From assembly GCA_030656555.1 (NCBI GenBank), contig JAUSPN010000040.1:375-64374 (forward strand): DNA of 64,000 nucleotides. The letters run 5' to 3'. The stretch comes from Candidatus Desulfaltia sp. (lineage in GTDB: Bacteria; Desulfobacterota; Desulfobacteria; Desulfobacterales; ETH-SRB1). The position numbers were made by a program, and so were the translations under genes. How positions within the stretch are numbered: the stretch's first letter is position 1; each line of letters opens with the position of its first letter. Shown here piece by piece: positions 176 through 8,678 of the stretch. Below the pieces are notes generated by a model. That model worked only from the letters and a program-made list of their open reading frames with translations, searched no databases and had not been told where the DNA came from.

Positions 176-1899
176 CTCCTCCCAAACATTTTCTCAACTT
201 CTCCTTTGCTCCACTTTATCCAAGTGGGCCTGCCGTGCGGGCAGTTGGACGGGTTCTCGCACTGGTCAAGCTGATTGAGAAGCGTCTTTATCTCTGTGTC
301 TGTAAGAGCCTGATTTGCCCTGATCGCTCCGTGACAGGCCATTGTAATCAGGCATTTGTCAATACCCTTTTCCATGTCCGGCCCAAAACCTGTTTTTGCA
401 ATTTTTTCCACCATCTCGATAATAAGCGGCCTTATCTCCCTGCCTGCAAGAATAGCCGGCGCAGACTTTATCGCAAATGTATTGTTGCCGAACGGCTCTA
501 TTTCAAGGCCGAGCCTTAAAAACTCCGGGATCATCTTTTCAAGTATTTCTGCCTCCCTGTAACCCAGATCAACTGTTTCAGGAATAAGCAGGCTCTGATC
601 AGGGCTTTTTGAGCCTTTATACCGGCTTTTCAGTTGTTCATACAAAACCCGTTCATGGGCTGCATGCTGATCAATAAGCACAAGCTCATGATCCGACTCA
701 CAGATAATATATGTATTATAAAATCGGCCTATTATTTTTAAATCTGCGAAACAGGTTTTTTTATCCCAGAGCTGGTCCTGAATTTGAAGCGGGGAATGCG
801 CTCGCTTTTGCGGTTCAAACTTTTTGTAAGCAATGGCAGGTTCTGAAACAGAAAAATCATTATGCGTTTCAGCTGGTTTCCATTTATCCGTTTCAGCCCA
901 TTTATGTGTTTCAAGTTGACGAAGCGCCGTTGACACAGCATCTTTTACAGCTTCATGGACCTCCTTCTGCCTGGCAAATCTGACCTCCTGTTTTGCGGGA
1001 TGAACATTTACATCCACCTGTTCAAAAGGAACATAAACAAAAAGAACGGCCACGGGAAACCGCCCCTTCATCAATCTTTGCCCGTATCCTTCAGACAGGG
1101 CATGCTGAATGACCCTGTCACGCACAAACCTTTTATTTACATATATATAGATTCCGCGGGAGGTGCTGCGGAAAATTTTTGGAGATGATATCCAGCCTGC
1201 AATTGAAACAAATTTTTCATTAAATTGAAGTTTGCAAAAATCACTTTTCAAACCGGTTCCTGTGACATCCATTACCCTGTCAAACGGATCAGATGCCGGG
1301 AGCCAGCTTTTTACAATTTTCCGGTTGTGATAAAGCCTGAATCCGGCGTTCGGGTTTCCCAGCGCAATGCTTGAAATAATATCGGCAATATGGCCCATCT
1401 CCGTGGAGGCGCTTTTTAAAAACTTGCGCCTGGCCGGAATGTTATAAAAAAGCTGGCTGACGGTTACCATTGTGCCTTGAGGAGCCCCTGTTTGAGAGAC
1501 CTTTTTAATTCTGCCGCCTTCAACGATTATTTCAGCAGCAATCTCAGAAGCTTGATCCTTTGTAACAAGAGAAAATCTGGAAACAGAAGCAATGCTTGGA
1601 AGAGCTTCTCCCCTGAAACCGAGGGTCTTAATGGAAAACAGATCGTCATCCTTATATATTTTGCTGGTTGCATACCGCTCCAGGGCAAGCATGGCATCAT
1701 CTCCGTTCATGCCAATACCGTTATCCGACACACGTATCAGGGATTTTCCACCGTTTTCGACTTCGATTATGATGCGGCCTGCATGTGCATCAAGAGCGTT
1801 TTCAACAAGCTCCTTGACAACCGAACATGGCCGCTCCACAACCTCGCCCGCAGCTATCTTGTTGGAAAGATTCTCGGGAAGTATTCTTATCTTTGGCAT
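172..1899 (-). CDS. mutL: DNA mismatch repair protein MutL
   Basis: KIAAGEVVERP, GFRGEALPSI, DVNVHP, DQHAAHER and CPHGRP motifs. Confidence 0.98.
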   Translation of the reverse strand: MPKIRILPENLSNKIAAGEVVERPCSVVKELVENALDAHAGRIIIEVENGGKSLIRVSDNGIGMNGDDAMLALERYATSKIYKDDDLFSIKTLGFRGEALPSIASVSRFSLVTKDQASEIAAEIIVEGGRIKKVSQTGAPQGTMVTVSQLFYNIPARRKFLKSASTEMGHIADIISSIALGNPNAGFRLYHNRKIVKSWLPASDPFDRVMDVTGTGLKSDFCKLQFNEKFVSIAGWISSPKIFRSTSRGIYIYVNKRFVRDRVIQHALSEGYGQRLMKGRFPVAVLFVYVPFEQVDVNVHPAKQEVRFARQKEVHEAVKDAVSTALRQLETHKWAETDKWKPAETHNDFSVSEPAIAYKKFEPQKRAHSPLQIQDQLWDKKTCFADLKIIGRFYNTYIICESDHELVLIDQHAAHERVLYEQLKSRYKGSKSPDQSLLIPETVDLGYREAEILEKMIPEFLRLGLEIEPFGNNTFAIKSAPAILAGREIRPLIIEMVEKIAKTGFGPDMEKGIDKCLITMACHGAIRANQALTDTEIKTLLNQLDQCENPSNCPHGRPTWIKWSKGEVEKMFGRS

Positions 1900-1916
1900 G
1901 ATATTATCAACTTTTT

Positions 1917-1952
1917 ATTCACCGCAAAGCCGCAAAGAGCGCAGAGATTAAG
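1917..1952 (+). repeat. Solo terminal arm of the CACCGCAGAGCCGCAGAG repeat family
   Basis: ATTCACCGCAAAGCCGCAAAGAGCGCAGAGATTAAG, near-identical to 5195-5230. Confidence 0.85.
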
Positions 1953-1963
1953 AGTTTTTTTAT

Positions 1964-2137
1964 TCAATTTTCAGAAACAAAGCGGGATAAAAATTCCGCA
2001 TCCTTGGGAGACAGGTTGAATTTCAGACAGGCATCGGCTGTAAGCTGCTTTAAATCTTTTACATGCTCATGTTTACGTTTTTCTGAAATCCACTTTACCG
2101 CCTTTCTCAAATCTTCGCCTTTTGGTTGAACGCCCAT
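1964..2137 (-). CDS. 57-aa small hypothetical protein missed by the ORF track
   Basis: AAAGGAG RBS, ATG at 2137, TGA at 1964-1966; MGVQPKGEDLRKAVKWISEKRKHEHVKDLKQLTADACLKFNLSPKDAEFLSRFVSEN. Confidence 0.75.
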   Translation of the reverse strand: MGVQPKGEDLRKAVKWISEKRKHEHVKDLKQLTADACLKFNLSPKDAEFLSRFVSEN

Positions 2138-2223
2138 GAAACACTCCTTTTGTTATGGATTTTACCACAAAGAGCTTTGTAAAAACATCCCCTTTTGCCT
2201 ATATTGAATCTTTCTATTATATT

Positions 2224-2290
2224 TTTCGTGTTTTCGTACCTTCGTGATTTCGTGATAGTTTTTTATCTATTTCTTTGTGTCCTTCGTGGT
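2224..2290 (-). repeat. CCACGAAG/CACGAAA-type short repeat cluster
   Basis: Repeated TTCGTG units; the reverse complement starts CCACGAAGGACACAAAG, like 4367-4388. Confidence 0.6.
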
Positions 2291-2301
2291 TTAATATGTT
2301 T

Positions 2302-3762
2302 TTATATTTCCGGTTTTTTCTTATGAAAATCCGTGGCCTGCTCAAAATTATAAGCAGCCGTTAACATCTTTTTTTCTTCAAAATGCCTGCCCATCAGTTG
2401 AAGCCCGATCGGAAGGCCTGCGGATGAAAAACCGCATGGAACCGATATCCCTGGTATTCCGGCAAGGTTGGCTGAAATCGTAAATATGTCGGATAAATAC
2501 ATTGTAAGGGGATCATCGACCTTATCTCCTATTTTGAAAGCAGGGGTCGGCGCCACAGGAGACAGTATCAGGTCGCATGATTTAAATACATTTTTAAAAT
2601 CCTCCATGATCAGTGTCCGCACCTGGGAAGCCTTTTTGTAATATGCATCGTAATATCCGGCGGAAAGGGAGTATGTGCCAAGTATAATTCTTCTCTGAAC
2701 CTCTGCACCGAACCCTTTTGTTCTTGTAGATCTGTACATATCGATCAGGCTGTTTTTCTCTTTGTCTCTAAAACCATACTTTACGCCGTCGTACCTTGCA
2801 AGGTTCGAGCTTGCCTCTGAAGGGGCTATAACATAATAAACTGCAACGGCATATTTTGTGTGAGGCAATGTAATTTCAATGCATTTTGCTCCAAGAGCCT
2901 CAACCACTTTGACGGCATTTTTAATTGCGCCGGAAACCTCGGGATCGAGCCCTTTTGTCTCGTTATATTCCTTTGGAATGCCGATAGTCGTCCCGCTTAA
3001 ACCCTTATTTGAAAAGGATGTATAATCCGGCACAGCTTCAGGCACTGAAGTGGAATCTGCCGGGTCGTAACCTGCAATAACATTCATAAGCATGGCGCAA
3101 TCTAAAACATCCTTTGCAAGCGGACCGATCTGATCAAGCGAGGATGCAAAAGCAATAAGACCGAATCGTGAAACCCTTCCATACGTGGGTTTCATCCCGA
3201 CAACTCCGCAATGAGAGGCGGGCTGGCGTATCGACCCGCCGGTATCGGAACCAAGTGAGCCAAGGCACATATCGGCTGCGACTGCCGCGGCTGATCCACC
3301 GCTTGACCCACCCGGAATACAGGTTAAGTCCCATGGATTGCGGGTTATTTTCACGGCTGAATTTTCCGTGGATGATCCCATGGCAAATTCATCCATGTTT
3401 GTCTTTCCGACAATCACGGCCCCGGCCTTTTTAAGCTTTTTTATGACAAAGGCATCGTATTGGGGCGTAAAGTTATCAAGTATCCTTGATGCGCAGGTTG
3501 TGCGCAGCCCCTTTGTACAGATAAGATCCTTTACAGAAAGAGGGATCCCTGACAGAGGCAAAATATTACCTTTAGATATTTCTTTATCTGTAAGCTCAGC
3601 CTGCTTTACCGCTGTTTCAGCGTCAATTGTAATATATGCCTCTACCTTTTTCTCAACAGATTCGATCCGGTCAAGAACAGCTCTGGTCAGCTCCTGCGAA
3701 GATATATCCCTTTTCTTTAAAAGACCGCAGGCTTCATGTATTGTAAGTTCATGCAGTTTCAT
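2302..3762 (-). CDS. gatA: Asp-tRNA(Asn)/Glu-tRNA(Gln) amidotransferase subunit A
   Basis: Amidase signature [32 protein letters not shown]; start placed at ATG 3762 (MKLHEL). Confidence 0.97.
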
Positions 3763-3799
3763 ATTTTCTACCATCTACTCGGACAAGCCAGTTTTTTTT

Positions 3800-3982
3800 A
3801 TTCACCGCAGAGCCGCAGAGGACGCTGAGAAATTTATTCTTTTAAATTGTCGTGAGAGGCGACAATTTAAAAACCAACCTGTCTAATGACAATCTTAATA
3901 ATGCGTTTCTTTTTGTTTTCCGTCCTCTCAACGGAAAACAAAAAAACTCTTAATCTTTGCGTTCTCTGCGGCTCTGCGGTGA
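3800..3982. mobile_element. Gene-less palindromic element with the same ends as the GxxExxY cassette
   Basis: Inverted arms TCACCGCAGAGCCGCAGAGGACGC / GCGTTCTCTGCGGCTCTGCGGTGA, each followed inward by a hairpin with a TGAGAGG loop (3841-3871; 3910-3944 inverted). Mobility is inferred. Confidence 0.7.
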
Positions 3983-3994
3983 GATATAAATTTT

Positions 3995-4285
3995 TTACGC
4001 GTTTATCACTTTTGGAACTATAAAATTTCCGCCTTCCTTTTCAGGAGCATTTGCAAGGGCTTTATCTGCGCCAATAGATTCTTTTACCTCGTCTTCCCTG
4101 AAAGCATTGGACAGAAAAACAGCATGAGAAGTCGGGGTGATGCCCTTGGTGTCAACACTGTTTAGAGTATCGACATATTCGAGTATATCGCCTATCTGTT
4201 CCGCAAGCCTGTTAATAGAGTTTTCATCCAAATCAAGACGGGCAAGATCCGCCGTGTAAACAACTTCGTCTTTGGTTATTTTCAT
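3995..4285 (-). CDS. gatC: Amidotransferase subunit C
   Basis: MKITKDEVVYTADLARL...REDEV...NAPEKEGGNFIVPKVI; directly upstream of gatA. Confidence 0.96.
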   Translation of the reverse strand: MKITKDEVVYTADLARLDLDENSINRLAEQIGDILEYVDTLNSVDTKGITPTSHAVFLSNAFREDEVKESIGADKALANAPEKEGGNFIVPKVINA

Positions 4286-4313
4286 GATAAAATTTATCCT
4301 TTTTGCAATCATT

Positions 4314-4388
4314 AACCACTGAGATCACAGAGGACACAGAGGATTATTTATAAAAATTTTTTATTTTACCACGAAGAACACGAAGAAT
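4314..4388 (+). repeat. ACCACAGAG / ACCACGAAG-type short repeats
   Basis: AACCACTGAGATCACAGAGGACACAGAGG and TTACCACGAAGAACACGAAGAA. Confidence 0.6.
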
Positions 4389-4562
4389 AAAAATTAATCA
4401 TCGCAATTCCTGCGGATTACAATCCAATATCAAGAACGTAGCCGTCAAGCTAAAAGGATATTAACATCGACGTTCAAAAGAATTTTTACTCTGCCGCTCA
4501 ACATTCTCTTATCATAAATATTTTATTTCTTAATCTTACAACCATGCCATTAGGAGAGGGAA

Positions 4563-5189
4563 TCATTCTTCAACAACTATCGGTCTGTATTTATCCTTTT
4601 TCAGCTTTTCTAAAGTGTCGGCGGCATCTGATCTGTTTTTAAAATGCCCTATCCTGATCCTGTGCCAGGCGCCCGTATCGGGTATTTTCGCTGAAACCGT
4701 ATATGCCTGATATCCTTTTTTCTTTAACATTTCCGCCATCTCGACGGCAACCTTCATGTCTTTTAAAGACGCAACCTGAATCGTAAAACCAGCGTCTGCC
4801 GCGGCCTTAGTCTGTTTACTGTTTGAAGCAGACTTTTCGACCTCTTGCTCCGGCCTGGTTTTTGCGTTTTTAACTTCATGCCGCACGATCGGCCCGGTCT
4901 CTTTCAACGCCTCATAAAAGCCAAGCTCCATTTTAGCGCTTGCAGGGCCCCCGTCGGTTTTAAACCTCTCCCGCCCCTCTTTAACAACAGCCTCTTTCAA
5001 GGCAGCCAGCTCCTTTTGAAGGTTCTCAATATCAAACTTTACCGGAACCGTCCCCCTTCCCACAAAGATACCGAGTACAAACATCCATGCGGAAACAAAG
5101 AATATCACACAGATCCATGTCATTGTTCCTTTTCTGCCGGTCCCTGTCGAAGGTTTTATTATCTTTGATGCCTTATCGCTATTTTTCAT
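4563..5189 (-). CDS. SPOR-domain cell division/peptidoglycan-binding membrane protein
   Basis: N-terminal TM helix; C-terminal FTIQVAS...WHRIRIGHF SPOR domain; downstream of argS. Confidence 0.88.
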   Translation of the reverse strand: MKNSDKASKIIKPSTGTGRKGTMTWICVIFFVSAWMFVLGIFVGRGTVPVKFDIENLQKELAALKEAVVKEGRERFKTDGGPASAKMELGFYEALKETGPIVRHEVKNAKTRPEQEVEKSASNSKQTKAAADAGFTIQVASLKDMKVAVEMAEMLKKKGYQAYTVSAKIPDTGAWHRIRIGHFKNRSDAADTLEKLKKDKYRPIVVEE

Positions 5190-5288
5190 CTGTTATTCAC
5201 CGCAAAGCCGCAAAGGACGCTGAGATTAAGTTTTTTATTGTTTTCCGTTGAGAGGACGGAAAACAATAAGAGCTATCTGAAAAGTGGA

Positions 5289-5672
5289 TTACTCGTCTAA
5301 TTCGTTCACTATTCTTACTATGCCATCCCGCATAAGGGCTACATTGAAATTCAGGATCAAACCTAAATGAAGCCCTGACAATTTAAGATACGTCAAAAGT
5401 TGTGCCTTATGAATGGGCTCAACCTTATCGCATGACTTTAATTCAAGTATGATTTCGTCTTCAACAACTATATCCAGCCTATAGCCACAATCCAGTTTCT
5501 TGTTTTTATACATTACAGGTAAAGACTTCTGTCTTTCAAACTCCAAACCTATGAGACTCAGTTCATGACATAAGCATTCTTCATATATAGACTCCAGCAA
5601 ACCAGGGCCCAAGGTTTTATGTACCTCAATAGCAGCACCTATAATCTTACTGCTTAATTTATTGATATCCAT
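5289..5672 (-). CDS. GxxExxY protein (PD-(D/E)XK nuclease fold)
   Basis: GPGLLESIYEECL, YRLDIVVE, ILELK, QLLTYLK, GLILNF; start placed at ATG 5672 because the upstream extension runs into a repeat insert. Confidence 0.93.
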   Translation of the reverse strand: MDINKLSSKIIGAAIEVHKTLGPGLLESIYEECLCHELSLIGLEFERQKSLPVMYKNKKLDCGYRLDIVVEDEIILELKSCDKVEPIHKAQLLTYLKLSGLHLGLILNFNVALMRDGIVRIVNELDE

Positions 5673-5686
5673 CACGATCCAATCGT

Positions 5687-5805
5687 TTGAACTGAACAGC
5701 GAGCGCATTCCCCGCTGCTTGCGGCGGGGTTAGCGAGCGAATCAAAAAATTGACAGAATTCCTTACAGTCGAAGATTCCCCGCTGCTTGCGGCGGGGAGC
5801 TTCAA
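5687..5805. repeat. 119-bp insert with twin GC hairpins and TTGAA/TTCAA ends
   Basis: CCCCGCTGCTTGCGGCGGGG at 5710-5729 and again at 5778-5797. Confidence 0.8.
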
Positions 5806-5914
5806 TGCCCTGAAAGCGTTAGTTTTTTCCTTTCTGTCCTCTCAACAGAAAGGAAAATCTATCTTCCCTTTGCGTTCTCTGCGGCTCTGCGGTAAACAAT
5901 GGTATCAGGCTTAG

Positions 5915-7579
5915 CTACATCTTTTCAGGCGCAGACACGCCGAGAAGGGTGAGCCCGTTTTTAATGACCTTTTTTACGGCCACAACAAGATATAGCCGCG
6001 CACCGGTCAACAATTGATCGTCTGTTAACACCCTGTGTTTATTATAATAGGTATGAAAAGAGGATGCAAGATTCATAAGATAAAATGTTATGCGATGAGG
6101 TTCCATAAACTCGGCGCTTAATCTTACCGTCTCCGGATAGCTGCCTAAGCTTTTAATCAGATTAATCTCCTCAGGCTCTTTCAGTATGGAGACTGCCTTC
6201 TCATCCCAGCCTGTCTCCTTTATTCCTTTTTCACGCCCCTTTCTTATAATGCTCGATATCCTGGCATGAACATATTGAACATAAAAAACAGGGTTTTCGT
6301 TTGTCTTTTTCTTTGCAAGTTCCAAATCAAAATCAAGCGGGCTTTCATGATGACGTGTCAAAAAAATAAACCTTGCAGCATCAGATCCCACTTCACTTAT
6401 TACATCAGCAAGGGTAATAAATTCACCTGCCCTTGTTGACATGGCAACAGGCTGTCCACCCCGCAGTAGATTTACAAGCTGAACCAGTATTACATCAAAC
6501 CGGTCTTTGCTGTATCCGGCCGCCTCTATAGAAGCTTTTATACGCGGGATATAGCCGTGATGATCCGCTCCCCATATATCTATTATACGCTCAAACCCGC
6601 GATCGAACTTGTCTTTGTGGTATGCAATATCAGATGCAAAATATGTTGTCTGGCCGTTATTGCGTACAACCACCCTGTCCTTTTCATCTCCAAAGTCTTT
6701 TGTTCTAAACCAGTGCGCCCCGTCCTTTTCATATATAATATTCCGGCTGCGAAAATCATTTAAAACGTTATCAACCTTGCCTGAGTCATAAAGGCTCTGT
6801 TCGCTGAACCAGTTGTCAAATTCCACACCAAAGGATTTAAGATCATCCCTGATACCTGCAATAATATTTTTTGCGGCAAATTGCGCGCAATAATGCACTG
6901 CCTCTTCCTCCTTTTGATCAAGAAGGGTGCGCCCTTTATCCTCTTTTATCAGCCCTGCCAGATCCCGTATATAATCTCCCTGATAACAGTCATCCGGAAA
7001 GTCTATGTTTTCTCCAAATAGCTGCCTGTATCTGAGAAAAACAGATCGCCCCAGGGTATTTATCTGCCTGCCTGAGTCGTTTATATAATACTCTTTTTCA
7101 ACATCATATCCGCAAAAAAGCAAAATGTTTGCCATAGCATCCCCGACCGCTGCCCCGCGTCCATGCCCCACATGCAGCGGCCCGGTTGGATTTGAGCTTA
7201 CAAACTCCACCTGAATTTTACTTCCCTTTCCGATATCTGATGAGCCGTACATGTCACCTTCTTCATGAATCCTGGGCAAAACAGGATGCCAGGCCAGGTT
7301 GTTTATGAAAAAATTAATAAAGCCGGGCACTGCTATCTCTGTTTTTGAGATTATTCCTTTTGGATCGTCGATGTTTTTGATTATCGCCTCTGCAATCCTT
7401 TTTGGCTGCATCTTCTGAACCGATGCCATAACCATGGCAATATTGGTTGAAAAATCACCTTGAGACTCAATCCTTGGCGTATCCACCTCGACATCCGGGA
7501 ATTCAGACGACGGCAGATCCCCTTTTTCATGGGCATTTAACGCTGCTTTAAGTATCAAATTTTTTATCTTTTGTTTCAT
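5915..7579 (-). CDS. argS: Arginyl-tRNA synthetase
   Basis: [18 protein letters not shown] (HIGH), [23 protein letters not shown]. Confidence 0.98.
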
Positions 7580-7624
7580 TTTGTTATAAATTCCAATCTA
7601 TTATAGTAAGAACCTGCTCAAAAC

Positions 7625-7666
7625 TGATGAACTCGTAAAAAGTCTAAAAATCACTTTTTGCGAACA
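7625..7666. repeat. Degenerate copy of the TGATGAATTCGTAAAAAGT inverted-repeat family
   Basis: TGATGAACTCGTAAAAAGT-CTAAAAATC-ACTTTTTGCGAACAT. Confidence 0.7.
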
Positions 7667-7740
7667 TGTAAGCTGTAACCAGAATTCATCTCCAAGTCAA
7701 GAAGCTTTGCCCAGCCTGACTCACGAGCTGCAATTTAACA

Positions 7741-7768
7741 TTGACATGCTTTCCCTCTTAATTATAAA
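7741..7768 (+). promoter_or_regulatory. Candidate sigma-70 promoter of the Ni/Co operon
   Basis: TTGACA (7741) - 16 nt - TATAAA (7763). Confidence 0.5.
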
Positions 7769-7832
7769 ACCAAATATAATTTACGGGCTGAAGCCTGTTG
7801 CATATTTAAGAAATCAATAAAATTCAGTAAAT

Positions 7833-7889
7833 AAAGCCACGAAGGTATTATGTGTCAGGAAGACACTTAATTTCTCGTGGTTTTTTTTT
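7833..7889 (+). promoter_or_regulatory. Leader hairpin plus U-tract (attenuator-like) ahead of the Ni/Co operon RBS
   Basis: AAAGCCACGA/TCGTGGTTTT outer stem, inner GTGTC-AGGAA-GACAC hairpin, T9 at 7881-7889. Confidence 0.5.
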
Positions 7890-7907
7890 GCAATGATGGA
7901 GGTAATT

Positions 7908-8678
7908 ATGAAAAAAGGAACTATTTTGGTTTTGATTCTTTGCTTTACTTTTTTTACAGCCGTGCCTGCGTTTGCACATTTCGGGATGCTGATCCCGTCA
8001 GATTCCATGGTCATGCAGAATGATAACAGAACCGTAAGCTTAAAGCTTTCCTTTTCCCATCCTTTTGAAGTGGTGGGGATGGAGATGGTTAAGCCAAAAG
8101 TATTTTCAGTTATGGCAAACAGCGCAAAAGAAGATCTGCTTGGAAACCTGAAAAAGATAAAGGTCATGGAGCATAGCGCATGGCAGGTTGACTACTCGAT
8201 TAAGAGACCCGGAATATACATGTTTTACATGGAGCCCAAACCTTACTGGGAACCGTCGGAAGACTGTTTTATCGTGCATTATACAAAAACGGTTGTCGCT
8301 GCTTTCGGGGATGACGAAGGATGGGATGAGGAAATCGGCCTTAAAACCGAAATAGTTCCACTGTCAAAACCATTTGGATTGTATGCTGGAAATGTTTTCC
8401 AGGGAATTGTCAAACTCGACGGCAAGGCTGTTCCATATGCTGACGTGGAAATAGAATACTACAACCAGGACGGAAAGTTAAAAGCCCCGACCGACTACAT
8501 GGTAACCCAGGCCATCAAGGCGGATCAAAACGGAGTGTTTACATACGCTGCGCCAAAGGCCGGCTGGTGGGGTTTTTCCGCTCTTAATCCATCGGACAAA
8601 AAAATGAACTACAACGGCAAGGAAAAGGATGTCGAGCTTGGAGCGGTTATATGGGTTGAATTTCATGATATGGATTGA
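7908..8678 (+). CDS. DUF4198-family periplasmic protein (Ni/Co uptake component)
   Basis: Signal peptide ending [11 protein letters not shown]; [15 protein letters not shown]; GWWGFSAL; GGAGG RBS before ATG 7908; heads the cbiM/Q/O operon. Confidence 0.85.

Follow-up and report, generated by a model that had tools for sequence, protein, structure and literature searches.

A GxxExxY nuclease gene and its cognate repeat ends as a candidate selfish cassette at the argS-SPOR junction of a Candidatus Desulfaltia genome

Introduction

Does a small nuclease gene that stands between argS and a SPOR-domain gene belong to that operon junction, or did it arrive there together with the repeats that enclose it, and what would then copy it? 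We addressed this question for positions 5190-5914 of the window (the whole 64,000-nucleotide stretch of DNA analysed here), which lies on contig C13 of a 2.73-Mb metagenome-assembled genome (MAG) from groundwater (G000; genus Candidatus Desulfaltia, Desulfobacterales; 107 contigs, 41.9% GC). This 725-bp segment fills the space between the argS stop codon and the start codon of the SPOR gene, and contains a gene of the GxxExxY family (PF13366) between two inverted arms of three tandem heptamers, each arm followed inward by a hairpin. A first-pass annotation of the same DNA had described the gene between argS and SPOR, the inverted arms and the perfect hairpins, and every part that it described is present. 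It had further proposed a system like that of repetitive extragenic palindromes (REP) and REP-associated tyrosine transposases (RAYT), in which the nuclease recognises and spreads its own flanking hairpins.

We read the segment as a small selfish cassette in which the GxxExxY nuclease gene travels with two cognate end modules that would act for its copying. We hold this reading tentatively, and judge it as a whole to fall slightly short of probable.

Results

Filled and empty argS-SPOR junctions

On the gene strand (-), which the cassette gene shares with argS and the SPOR gene, the argS stop codon is followed by 20 nt, the 5' arm, a 13-bp hairpin, a 150-nt leader and the open reading frame (ORF) starting with the ATG at 5672. 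After the ORF stop codon (5289-5291) come a 14-bp hairpin, the 3' arm and 8 nt before the ATG of the SPOR gene (5189). We compared this junction with those of eight congeners (G001-G008, of which G006 is Ca. Desulfaltia bathyphila JACNLL01). All genomes compared in this work are MAGs or drafts in which repeats break contigs, so that the absence of a gene can be an assembly artefact. Empty junctions, with the argS stop codon, 2-9 nt and the SPOR ATG in direct succession, were found in four of these same-genus genomes: TAG-CG-ATG in both G005 and G006 (ArgS 93% and 89% identical), TAG-TG-ATG in G003 (91%) and TAG-CGAGGCTTG-ATG in G008 (90%). The same element with the same left junction is present in G004 (91%), with the first 4 and the last ~30 codons left and no nested repeat, and the three remaining genomes (G001, G002 and G007; 90-91%) have other arrays, of the ACTTTAGGC type, at this position. 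In one contig from metagenome run X3, 5190 and 5915 are separated by a single base. The runs that hold the sequence are DNA metagenomes throughout, present as assembled contigs.

By alignment, these comparisons show that the cassette was inserted into a junction that is otherwise tight and translationally coupled. The first-pass annotation had taken it for a candidate autonomous element and had named empty junctions in close relatives as a check; four were found, and the X3 contig also joins the flanks. Nor is the gene vertically fixed at this locus, as that annotation had allowed it might be, since junctions are empty in relatives and the cassette of G006 lies at a different locus.

Movement and decay within the genus

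The arms of the cassette also occur without the gene. A 16-mer arm core has 5 matches in the window where chance would give 0.17 (a count that none of 100 shuffles attains), and 36 copies genome-wide, mostly in gene-less doublets of ~180 bp (about 11). Eight gene-less doublets (~180-240 bp) can be aligned from TT-CACC to GGTG-A and are unrelated beyond these limits, where the flanks are AT-rich. The joined flanks of ten doublets of this family (type A) were searched for in the eight congeners, and every tested site proved polymorphic, being empty or occupied by the same element, by an internally deleted form or by another array family. At the gatC/gatA junction, for example, the two genes overlap as TAATG in G006, the junction is nearly empty in G001, a 59-bp internally deleted remnant is present in G005, and other arrays are present in G003 and G007, that of G007 being a ~300-bp (CCTCTGC)n / (CTGACYT)n heptamer expansion.

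An intact cassette, with a protein 87% identical to that of the window, is found in G006 (locus L031) at a site matching contig C32 of G000. There, G000 has a remnant from which 338 bp are gone, so that of the gene the final ~50 nt are left, together with both arms. Over the shared 3' 130 nt the window copy and the C32 remnant are 96% identical, whereas both are 85-87% identical to G006. Because the two G000 copies are so alike and the C32 copy lacks 338 bp, the argS-SPOR copy is, on these identities, a secondary one made within the lineage, and the older C32 copy then decayed to something resembling a miniature inverted-repeat transposable element (MITE). The same alignments show that, within the genus, the cassette has moved from one locus to another and that it gives rise, by deletion, to derivatives without the gene but with both ends. 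The spread resembling that of REP doublets forming hairpins (REPINs), which the first-pass annotation had foreseen, is to this extent seen, in that gene-less doublets arising by internal deletion exist (C32 compared with G006).

Similar arrays have been read as regulatory elsewhere: tandem heptamer/octamer arrays of Geobacter metallireducens are described as 'global regulator binding sites' (PMC2700814), and a regulatory role has been proposed for the TAACTGA repeats of Beggiatoaceae (PMC4679880). On such a reading the arrays would be sites of a global regulator or of translational control and the gene would be there by coincidence, and it fits that arrays are often situated just upstream of start codons. 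It fits less well that their presence or absence varies at orthologous junctions among congeners, that essential operon junctions work without arrays in sister species, that the arrays travel with the gene across phyla, and that G000 alone has at least 130 unit families, too many for host regulators. We consider host regulatory sites a very improbable explanation.

Association of arrays and gene across phyla and domains

A scan of one genome per species yielded 80 homologues of the cassette protein, 58-91% identical, from Thermodesulfobacteriota, Myxococcota, Nitrospirota, Acidobacteriota, Verrucomicrobiota, Planctomycetota, Bacteroidota, Chloroflexota, Pseudomonadota and Methylomirabilota, as well as from archaea (Methanoperedens, Methanosarcinales and an uncultured archaeon; L056, L066 and L067; 67-70% identical). 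The protein tree is out of line with taxonomy. Arrays, counted as triple CRCNRAG within 330 nt of the homologue gene, are found upstream in 63 of the 80 loci (62 in sense (+) orientation), downstream in 54 (50 in antisense (-) orientation) and on both sides in 45, while only 20 occur elsewhere in those loci (~136 kb); a reversed-pattern control gives ~0 matches per genome. The class of the unit, CGC or CAC, changes 7 times on the protein tree, compared with 13-18 times in the ten shuffles printed. At the archaeal loci CGCAAAG triple arrays abut the ORF, and this sharing of the same triple arrays implies that the whole package has crossed domains. A minimal form, CACC...GGTG, is found in the cultured Bacteroides finegoldii (in a record deposited as a plasmid), where only CACCACAGAGGACGCAGAGGACACGGAGG, the ORF and CTCTGTGACCTCTGTGTCCTCTGTGGTG lie between radA and the next gene.

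Since neutral DNA is unrecognisable at 60% protein identity, the heptamers are, by this conservation, under purifying selection for sequence, and the arms are cognate to the gene and selected. Among 151 genomes of the class, at least 3 arrays are present in 33 of 33 with a gene of the subfamily and in 38 of 118 without one (Fisher p = 9e-14), a comparison made without phylogenetic correction and with a pattern, CRCNRAG, that other array families match as well, CACGAAG in G128 for example. As the first-pass annotation's proposal requires, the arms are strongly enriched at GxxExxY genes, by the count of loci as well as by the count of genomes, and the arm type tracks the protein subfamily.

The same holds beyond the cassette's own subfamily. 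The GxxExxY paralogues of G000 have the units CGCAGAG (the cassette), CACGAAAG, CGCTAAG (two copies) and ATCCTGT (two copies), with closely related paralogues sharing a heptamer unit. For the type-D subfamily, ATCCTGT arrays stand upstream of the gene in 62 of 80 metagenome loci (67-92% identity) and downstream of it in 70; these arrays are in direct orientation, each with its own hairpin ahead of it. Contig C32 of G000 has, at ~27-33 kb, three GxxExxY genes (27327, 28956 and 30185) in tandem with a four-helix-bundle gene (32180); behind each of the four lies a module of hairpin and array, in direct orientation. This layout is like that of a cassette array, with other small genes interleaved, one of them MNT-nucleotidyltransferase-like by its N-terminal sequence, and with sugar-nucleotide genes adjoining.

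Taken with the movement within the genus, the sequence comparisons show that the gene and its cognate, selected ends form one package, which is mobile both horizontally and within genomes and has non-autonomous derivatives. A phage or plasmid vector was considered and rejected, as no phage copy was found and plasmid records number only 7, most of them megaplasmids.

Arms and hairpins: recognition or pairing

Each arm has a TTCAC terminus and three tandem CRCNRAG heptamers, to which the Desulfobacterota lineage adds a hairpin. The A and the C of the outer 5 nt (TTCAC) are present in 114 of 114 arms, and conservation ends there; the heptamers are spaced 8+9 nt in 53 arms and 8+8 nt in 23. In the cassette, 5198-5224 (CACCGCAAAGCCGCAAAGGACGCTGAG) and 5868-5894 (reverse complement of TACCGCAGAGCCGCAGAGAACGCAAAG) are 82% complementary over 28 nt, the 3' arm reading CTCAGCGTC-CTTTGCGG-CTTTGCGGTG on the gene strand (5224-5198). 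The two hairpins of the cassette differ in their stems and share an identical 7-nt loop (TGAGAGG / CCTCTCA). Throughout the Desulfobacterota clade the hairpin lies 5-16 nt after the array and has a 13-18-bp stem that is almost perfectly Watson-Crick; at least 23 distinct stems were found in other genomes and 13 in this one, all with the loop TGAGAGG or a near variant. Because the stems covary around an invariant loop, the loop is, by this pattern, a recognition element. More distant homologues have no hairpin, and their arrays directly adjoin the ORF, with gaps of -7 to +10 nt, so the hairpin is, as far as these loci indicate, a lineage-specific accessory and not a defining part. The hairpins and the inverted arms that the first-pass annotation described at this locus do not extend to the family at large, since many homologues have arrays abutting the ORF and two other GxxExxY subfamilies have direct arrays.

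The upstream neighbour is co-oriented with the gene in 60 of 69 loci and the downstream neighbour in 46 of 72 (crude ORF calls), and no promoter-like or terminator-like site was found on the gene strand within the cassette. The co-oriented upstream gene and the lack of a promoter-like site suggest that the gene is expressed by read-through transcription. A role of the hairpins as intrinsic terminator or promoter was rejected, there being no T-run behind them on the gene strand and no promoter-like site. When the sense RNA (5185-5915) was folded in silico (dG -240 kcal/mol, z = -6.1), both the minimum-free-energy and the centroid structure closed with an arm-arm stem of ~28 bp, and both loop-conserved hairpins formed.

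Such a fold would suit an RNA element like the intervening sequences (IVS) of 23S rRNA genes. The arms would pair in the transcript and RNase III would free the cassette mRNA from the argS-SPOR polycistron, so that the insert would be tolerated in the operon, the nuclease doing something else and the spread proceeding by recombination or another route. The position of the cassette, co-oriented inside an operon without a promoter-like site, agrees with this, as does the similar packaging in G000 of four-helix-bundle genes, the family of the IVS ORF; the last heptamer (CAGAGG) can also double as a Shine-Dalgarno sequence where arrays abut the ATG. The sequence of the arms nevertheless points away from simple pairing. 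Arm mismatches are mostly transversions at heptamer position 4 and have no G.U-compatible sense bias (10 sense, 22 antisense, 37 transversions), and the heptamer itself is conserved at C1, C3, A6 and G7, beyond what complementarity asks for. The six units of one element agree at their variable positions as strongly within an arm (0.82) as between arms (0.81; 0.59 in shuffles), a homogenisation that a stem does not need, and subfamilies C and D have direct arrays that do not pair. The hairpins take no side, because their stems are almost perfectly Watson-Crick and the functional strand, or RNA as against DNA, cannot be read from them; the wobble count without the loop-closing T.G pair (11 G.T, 6 A.C) is uninformative for strand. 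Overall, the position-4 transversions and the lack of G.U bias argue for sequence recognition rather than simple pairing, and for this inverted-arm subfamily we regard an IVS-like element as unlikely.

The GxxExxY protein

The ORF at 5289-5708 (-) matches TIGR04256 (E 4e-46; 156.1 bits, cut-off 35) and PF13366 (PDDEXK_3; E 1.7e-44; 151.4 bits, cut-off 22). All 80 homologues align from the Met encoded at 5672, so this ATG is most likely the true start and the longer ORF to 5708 is probably unused, which gives a protein of 127 aa. It has the motif G24-L-L-E27-S-I-Y30 together with D67 and E77-L-K79; among 75 sequences E27 (of GxxExxY), E77 and K79 are invariant and D67 is kept in at least 90%. 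An AlphaFold2 (AF2) model (predicted local distance difference test, pLDDT, 95.5; predicted template-modelling score, pTM, 0.89) has the PD-(D/E)XK alpha-beta-beta-beta-alpha-beta core fold. Both the fold and the lack of an assigned function had been stated in the first-pass annotation; a 2012 survey of the PD-(D/E)XK superfamily likewise gives the function of this family as 'Unknown' and reports multiple transfers between bacteria and archaea (PMC3424549).

The top fold neighbours of the model in the PDB are Cas4 (4r5q, 4ic1), then lambda exonuclease and RecE, with 6m9k among the matches. With its active site conserved, the modelled enzyme may be taken as active and as Cas4/lambda-exonuclease-like. 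A Holliday-junction resolvase that cuts cruciforms was considered and rejected, as the fold search gave Cas4 and lambda exonuclease and not Hjc/RecU-type proteins. Searches with the sequence of the cassette protein gave zero hits in the PDB and zero matches in PHROGs, and PADLOC returned Cas4 core matches alone, which are weak (E 1e-3), and no firm match to a known anti-phage defence system.

What moves the cassette

The arrays are probably recognised by the GxxExxY protein of their own cassette, as putative binding sites, because this protein is the sole element-specific factor that crosses phyla and domains with the cassette. In the mechanism that we propose, the heptamer arrays would be bound by an oligomeric GxxExxY protein, which would cut at or near the arms or the hairpin loops and so bring about copying of the arm-bounded segment. 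Copying might proceed to new intergenic sites in the manner of transposition, or into gene-less doublets by break-induced recombination or gene conversion with the ~70-nt end modules as homology. That the nuclease, through its conserved site, works on the arms and thereby drives copying seems to us possible, at a level rather below probable.

Several findings weigh against this mechanism. There is one intact type-A gene for the 36 arms of G000. No target-site duplication was found at three filled-versus-empty junctions or at 8 aligned doublets with their flanks, in line with the first-pass annotation, which had seen no clear one; nor was a defined insertion target found, only AT-rich flanks and the TTCAC terminus. 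The direct arrays of subfamilies C and D do not fit a simple cut-and-paste process with inverted ends. The match of the fold to Cas4 and lambda exonuclease is weak (template-modelling score, TM, about 0.5). In 13 of the 151 genomes there are at least 10 arrays and no PF13366 gene, so the arms can persist or spread without the nuclease, with the reservation that the search pattern takes in other array families too; such array-rich genomes include G128 (180 arrays), G151 (60) and the congener G008 (54, with type-A doublets). Finally, four-helix-bundle genes, which have no nuclease fold, are flanked by arrays like those of the cassette (8 of 11 matches in G000), so a nuclease-specific mechanism cannot cover the whole class. 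The last two findings, the direct arrays and the lack of a target-site duplication also tell against the first-pass annotation's proposal that the nuclease spreads its own hairpins.

The arrays of G128, which belongs to the same order, are mostly CTTCGTG x3, a 25-nt spacer and CACGAAG x3 (e.g. L229 1501-1575), with a heptamer polarity relative to the loop that is opposite to that of the type-A doublets.

These findings also bear on the idea that the arm-hairpin modules are moved in trans, by a Y1/IS200-type transposase or an unrecognised recombinase, and that GxxExxY and four-helix-bundle genes are frequent cargo with another function (defence or addiction). G000 has ~500 short arrays of 7-10-mers in ~130 unit families, many of them as inverted pairs 5-250 bp apart; the largest are the GGTTCAG type (~120 copies), ACTTTAGGC (35), TTCGACG (29) and AATCCCTT (26). 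Among the abundant families, about half enclose a four-helix-bundle or GxxExxY gene between copies of the same unit, and half have none in the draft. That so many families lack a cargo copy, that most arms in G000 are gene-less, that arms abound in genomes without a GxxExxY gene and that one unit of the window has hybrid arms around a 57-aa ORF would all be expected of passengers. G000 encodes 6 full-length GxxExxY genes, ~9 full-length four-helix-bundle (PF05635) genes and 10 Y1_Tnp matches, which could supply the transposase. However, an array adjoins only 1 of 8 Y1 genes, as against 6 of 6 full-length GxxExxY genes and 8 of 11 four-helix-bundle matches, and Y1/RAYT was rejected as the driver on this count. 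Moreover, each protein subfamily keeps one heptamer across phyla and domains, over which a common host enzyme cannot be assumed, and the weak Cas4 matches in PADLOC, the empty PHROGs result and the scarcity of phage and plasmid copies speak against passengers as well. Movement in trans therefore appears to us rather improbable.

Other features of the window and genome

The coordinates of the cassette, its neighbours and related units are given in Table 1. The unit at 1920-2256 has mixed arms, a CCGCAAAG-type array on its left and a CACGAAR-type array on its right, around the 57-aa ORF (1964-2137, -), which has zero Pfam matches; the unit may represent a further type of cargo, or two half-elements side by side. 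The repeat nested in the leader of the cassette belongs to a family of the form TTGAACCGCAAAAGCGAGCGCA-TTCCCCGCTGCTTGCGGCGGGG-AGCTTCAA, which occurs as single (~50 bp) or double (~118 bp) units, has 82 hairpin copies genome-wide and reaches a depth in the thousands in four metagenomes. It is missing from the orthologous cassettes of G004 and G006. A search of window positions 1500-8000 against Rfam with E up to 1 gave zero matches.

The SPOR-gatC spacer (4326-4390) holds back-to-back short arrays, CACAGAGGACACAGAGGA and CACGAAGAACACGAAGAA; G005 has the same, and G007 and G008 have an empty 14-nt spacer. In G001 the SPOR gene (L007, ~3780-3840) has a GC-rich palindrome, GGGGCGGGTTTATCCCGCCCGCTGAATGAATTCGGGCGGGGTAAACCCGCCCC, apparently as an in-frame insert in a low-complexity linker.

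Table 1. Positions in the window of the inserted segment, its parts and related features.
Feature	Position	Strand	Remarks
Inserted segment, whole	5190..5914	-	between SPOR start codon (5187-5189) and argS stop codon (5915-5917)
GxxExxY gene, 127 aa + stop, PD-(D/E)XK nuclease fold	5289..5672	-	TIGR04256 + PF13366
5' arm, gene sense TACCGCAGAG CCGCAGAG AACGCAAAG; three CRCNRAG heptamers	5868..5894	-	terminus TTTAC at 5895-5899
5' hairpin, perfect 13-bp stem	5825..5857	-	sense-strand loop UGAGAGG
3' hairpin, perfect 14-bp stem	5235..5269	-	sense-strand loop CCUCUCA (TGAGAGG on + strand)
3' arm, + strand CACCGCAAAG CCGCAAAG GACGCTGAG	5198..5224	+	behind TT (5196-5197)
Nested double-hairpin repeat, 108 bp, two copies of TTCCCCGCTGCTTGCGGCGGGG	5698..5806		unrelated to the arms, in leader
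argS	5915-7579	-	TIGR00456, E 3e-138
SPOR-domain gene	4563-5189	-	start codon 5187-5189
Gene-less doublet, 179 bp, both arms and both TGAGAGG hairpins, between gatA and gatC	3803..3981		same arm family
Arm-bounded third unit	1920..2256		left arm of cassette family 1920-1946; right arm CACGAAR-type 2224-2256

Comparison with known systems

No description of this cassette class was found in the literature searched on GxxExxY/PDDEXK_3/PF13366 and on IVS four-helix-bundle elements. Whatever the mechanism, a large part of the intergenic repeats of this genome and of related MAGs, and of their contig breaks, is accounted for by cassettes and their decayed copies, and these show how operon junctions tolerate repeated invasion. 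For GxxExxY, a very large family without an assigned function, the cassette provides a testable context, and the candidate DNA or RNA partner, the CRCNRAG triplets with the TGAGAGG hairpin, is now specified at single-base resolution. If the protein does act on the arms, the cassette would be among the smallest autonomous mobile elements known and its enzyme a compact sequence-specific nuclease module.

Among known systems, REPIN-RAYT is the one that the cassette resembles most in its working. It is like the cassette in having a single-copy small gene between inverted structured repeats, dispersed intergenic gene-less doublets and a repeat type specific to the gene lineage. Its enzyme, however, is a Y1 (HUH) protein of the IS200/IS605 superfamily, whereas the cassette gene matches PF13366 only, and so does not belong to that system. 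REPIN-RAYT ends are a REP palindrome with a GTAG head, those of the cassette three tandem heptamers and a loop-conserved hairpin; some GxxExxY subfamilies have direct arms; and RAYTs are largely vertically inherited, while the unit of gene plus arms is horizontally mobile across phyla. Of the first-pass annotation's comparison, therefore, the inverted arms, dispersed doublets and gene-specific arms hold and membership does not, which leaves REPIN-RAYT as an analogue only.

ORF-bearing IVS of 23S rRNA genes (Coxiella and Leptospira; S23p/PF05635 ORF) are regarded as selfish elements with an unexplained route of spread (PMC4990558). Like the cassette, they place a small, promoterless ORF within inverted arms with a predicted transcript stem, co-oriented in a transcription unit, and the four-helix-bundle genes of G000 have an IVS-like arm design. 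They differ in lying in helix 25 or 45 of 23S rRNA, whereas the cassette lies between the protein genes argS and SPOR and has no Rfam match; in addition, the cassette ORF has a nuclease fold and its arms are sequence-conserved tandem heptamers.

With MITEs the cassette shares terminal inverted repeats (TTCAC...GTGAA), internal-deletion copies (C32 compared with G006) and insertion polymorphism. In contrast to MITEs and cut-and-paste transposons, it has no recognised transposase family and no target-site duplication, and its ends are internally repetitive. Rolling-circle origins, including those of the circular Rep-encoding single-stranded (CRESS) type, have iterons beside a stem-loop with an invariant loop. 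The layout of the cassette ends, with three short repeats 5-16 nt from an invariant-loop hairpin whose stem covaries, is alike, but the cassette encodes no HUH Rep protein and the analogy is one of layout only. In fold, in weak similarity to the Cas4 hidden Markov model and in its E...D...ExK site, the cassette protein is like the branch of Cas4, lambda exonuclease and RecE; unlike these, it is a minimal 127-aa core without an Fe-S cluster domain or toroid-forming extensions.

Cyanobacterial short tandemly repeated repetitive (STRR) sequences are similar short tandem arrays. Like the cassette arms, the Geobacter, Beggiatoaceae and STRR arrays consist of 3-6 tandem 7-8-mers, often as opposite-strand pairs with variable spacing, and are intergenic and phylogenetically patchy. 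The Geobacter and Beggiatoaceae reports connect them neither with cargo genes nor with insertion polymorphism, nor with GxxExxY or four-helix-bundle proteins. A wider proposal, which we consider somewhat unlikely as it stands, is that GxxExxY proteins are the enzymes of minimal autonomous mobile elements that form a class not recognised so far. Such an element would consist of a 127-aa nuclease and two ends of ~30-80 bp with three cognate heptamers each, the hairpin being optional; it would insert itself between the genes of operons, give rise to gene-less doublets resembling MITEs and pass from one phylum or domain to another. Together with the four-helix-bundle cassettes, this class could, with the same reservation, explain the Geobacter 'regulator sites', the STRR sequences and the TAACTGA repeats, and the cassettes may thereby tie several 'regulatory' repeat families to selfish elements.

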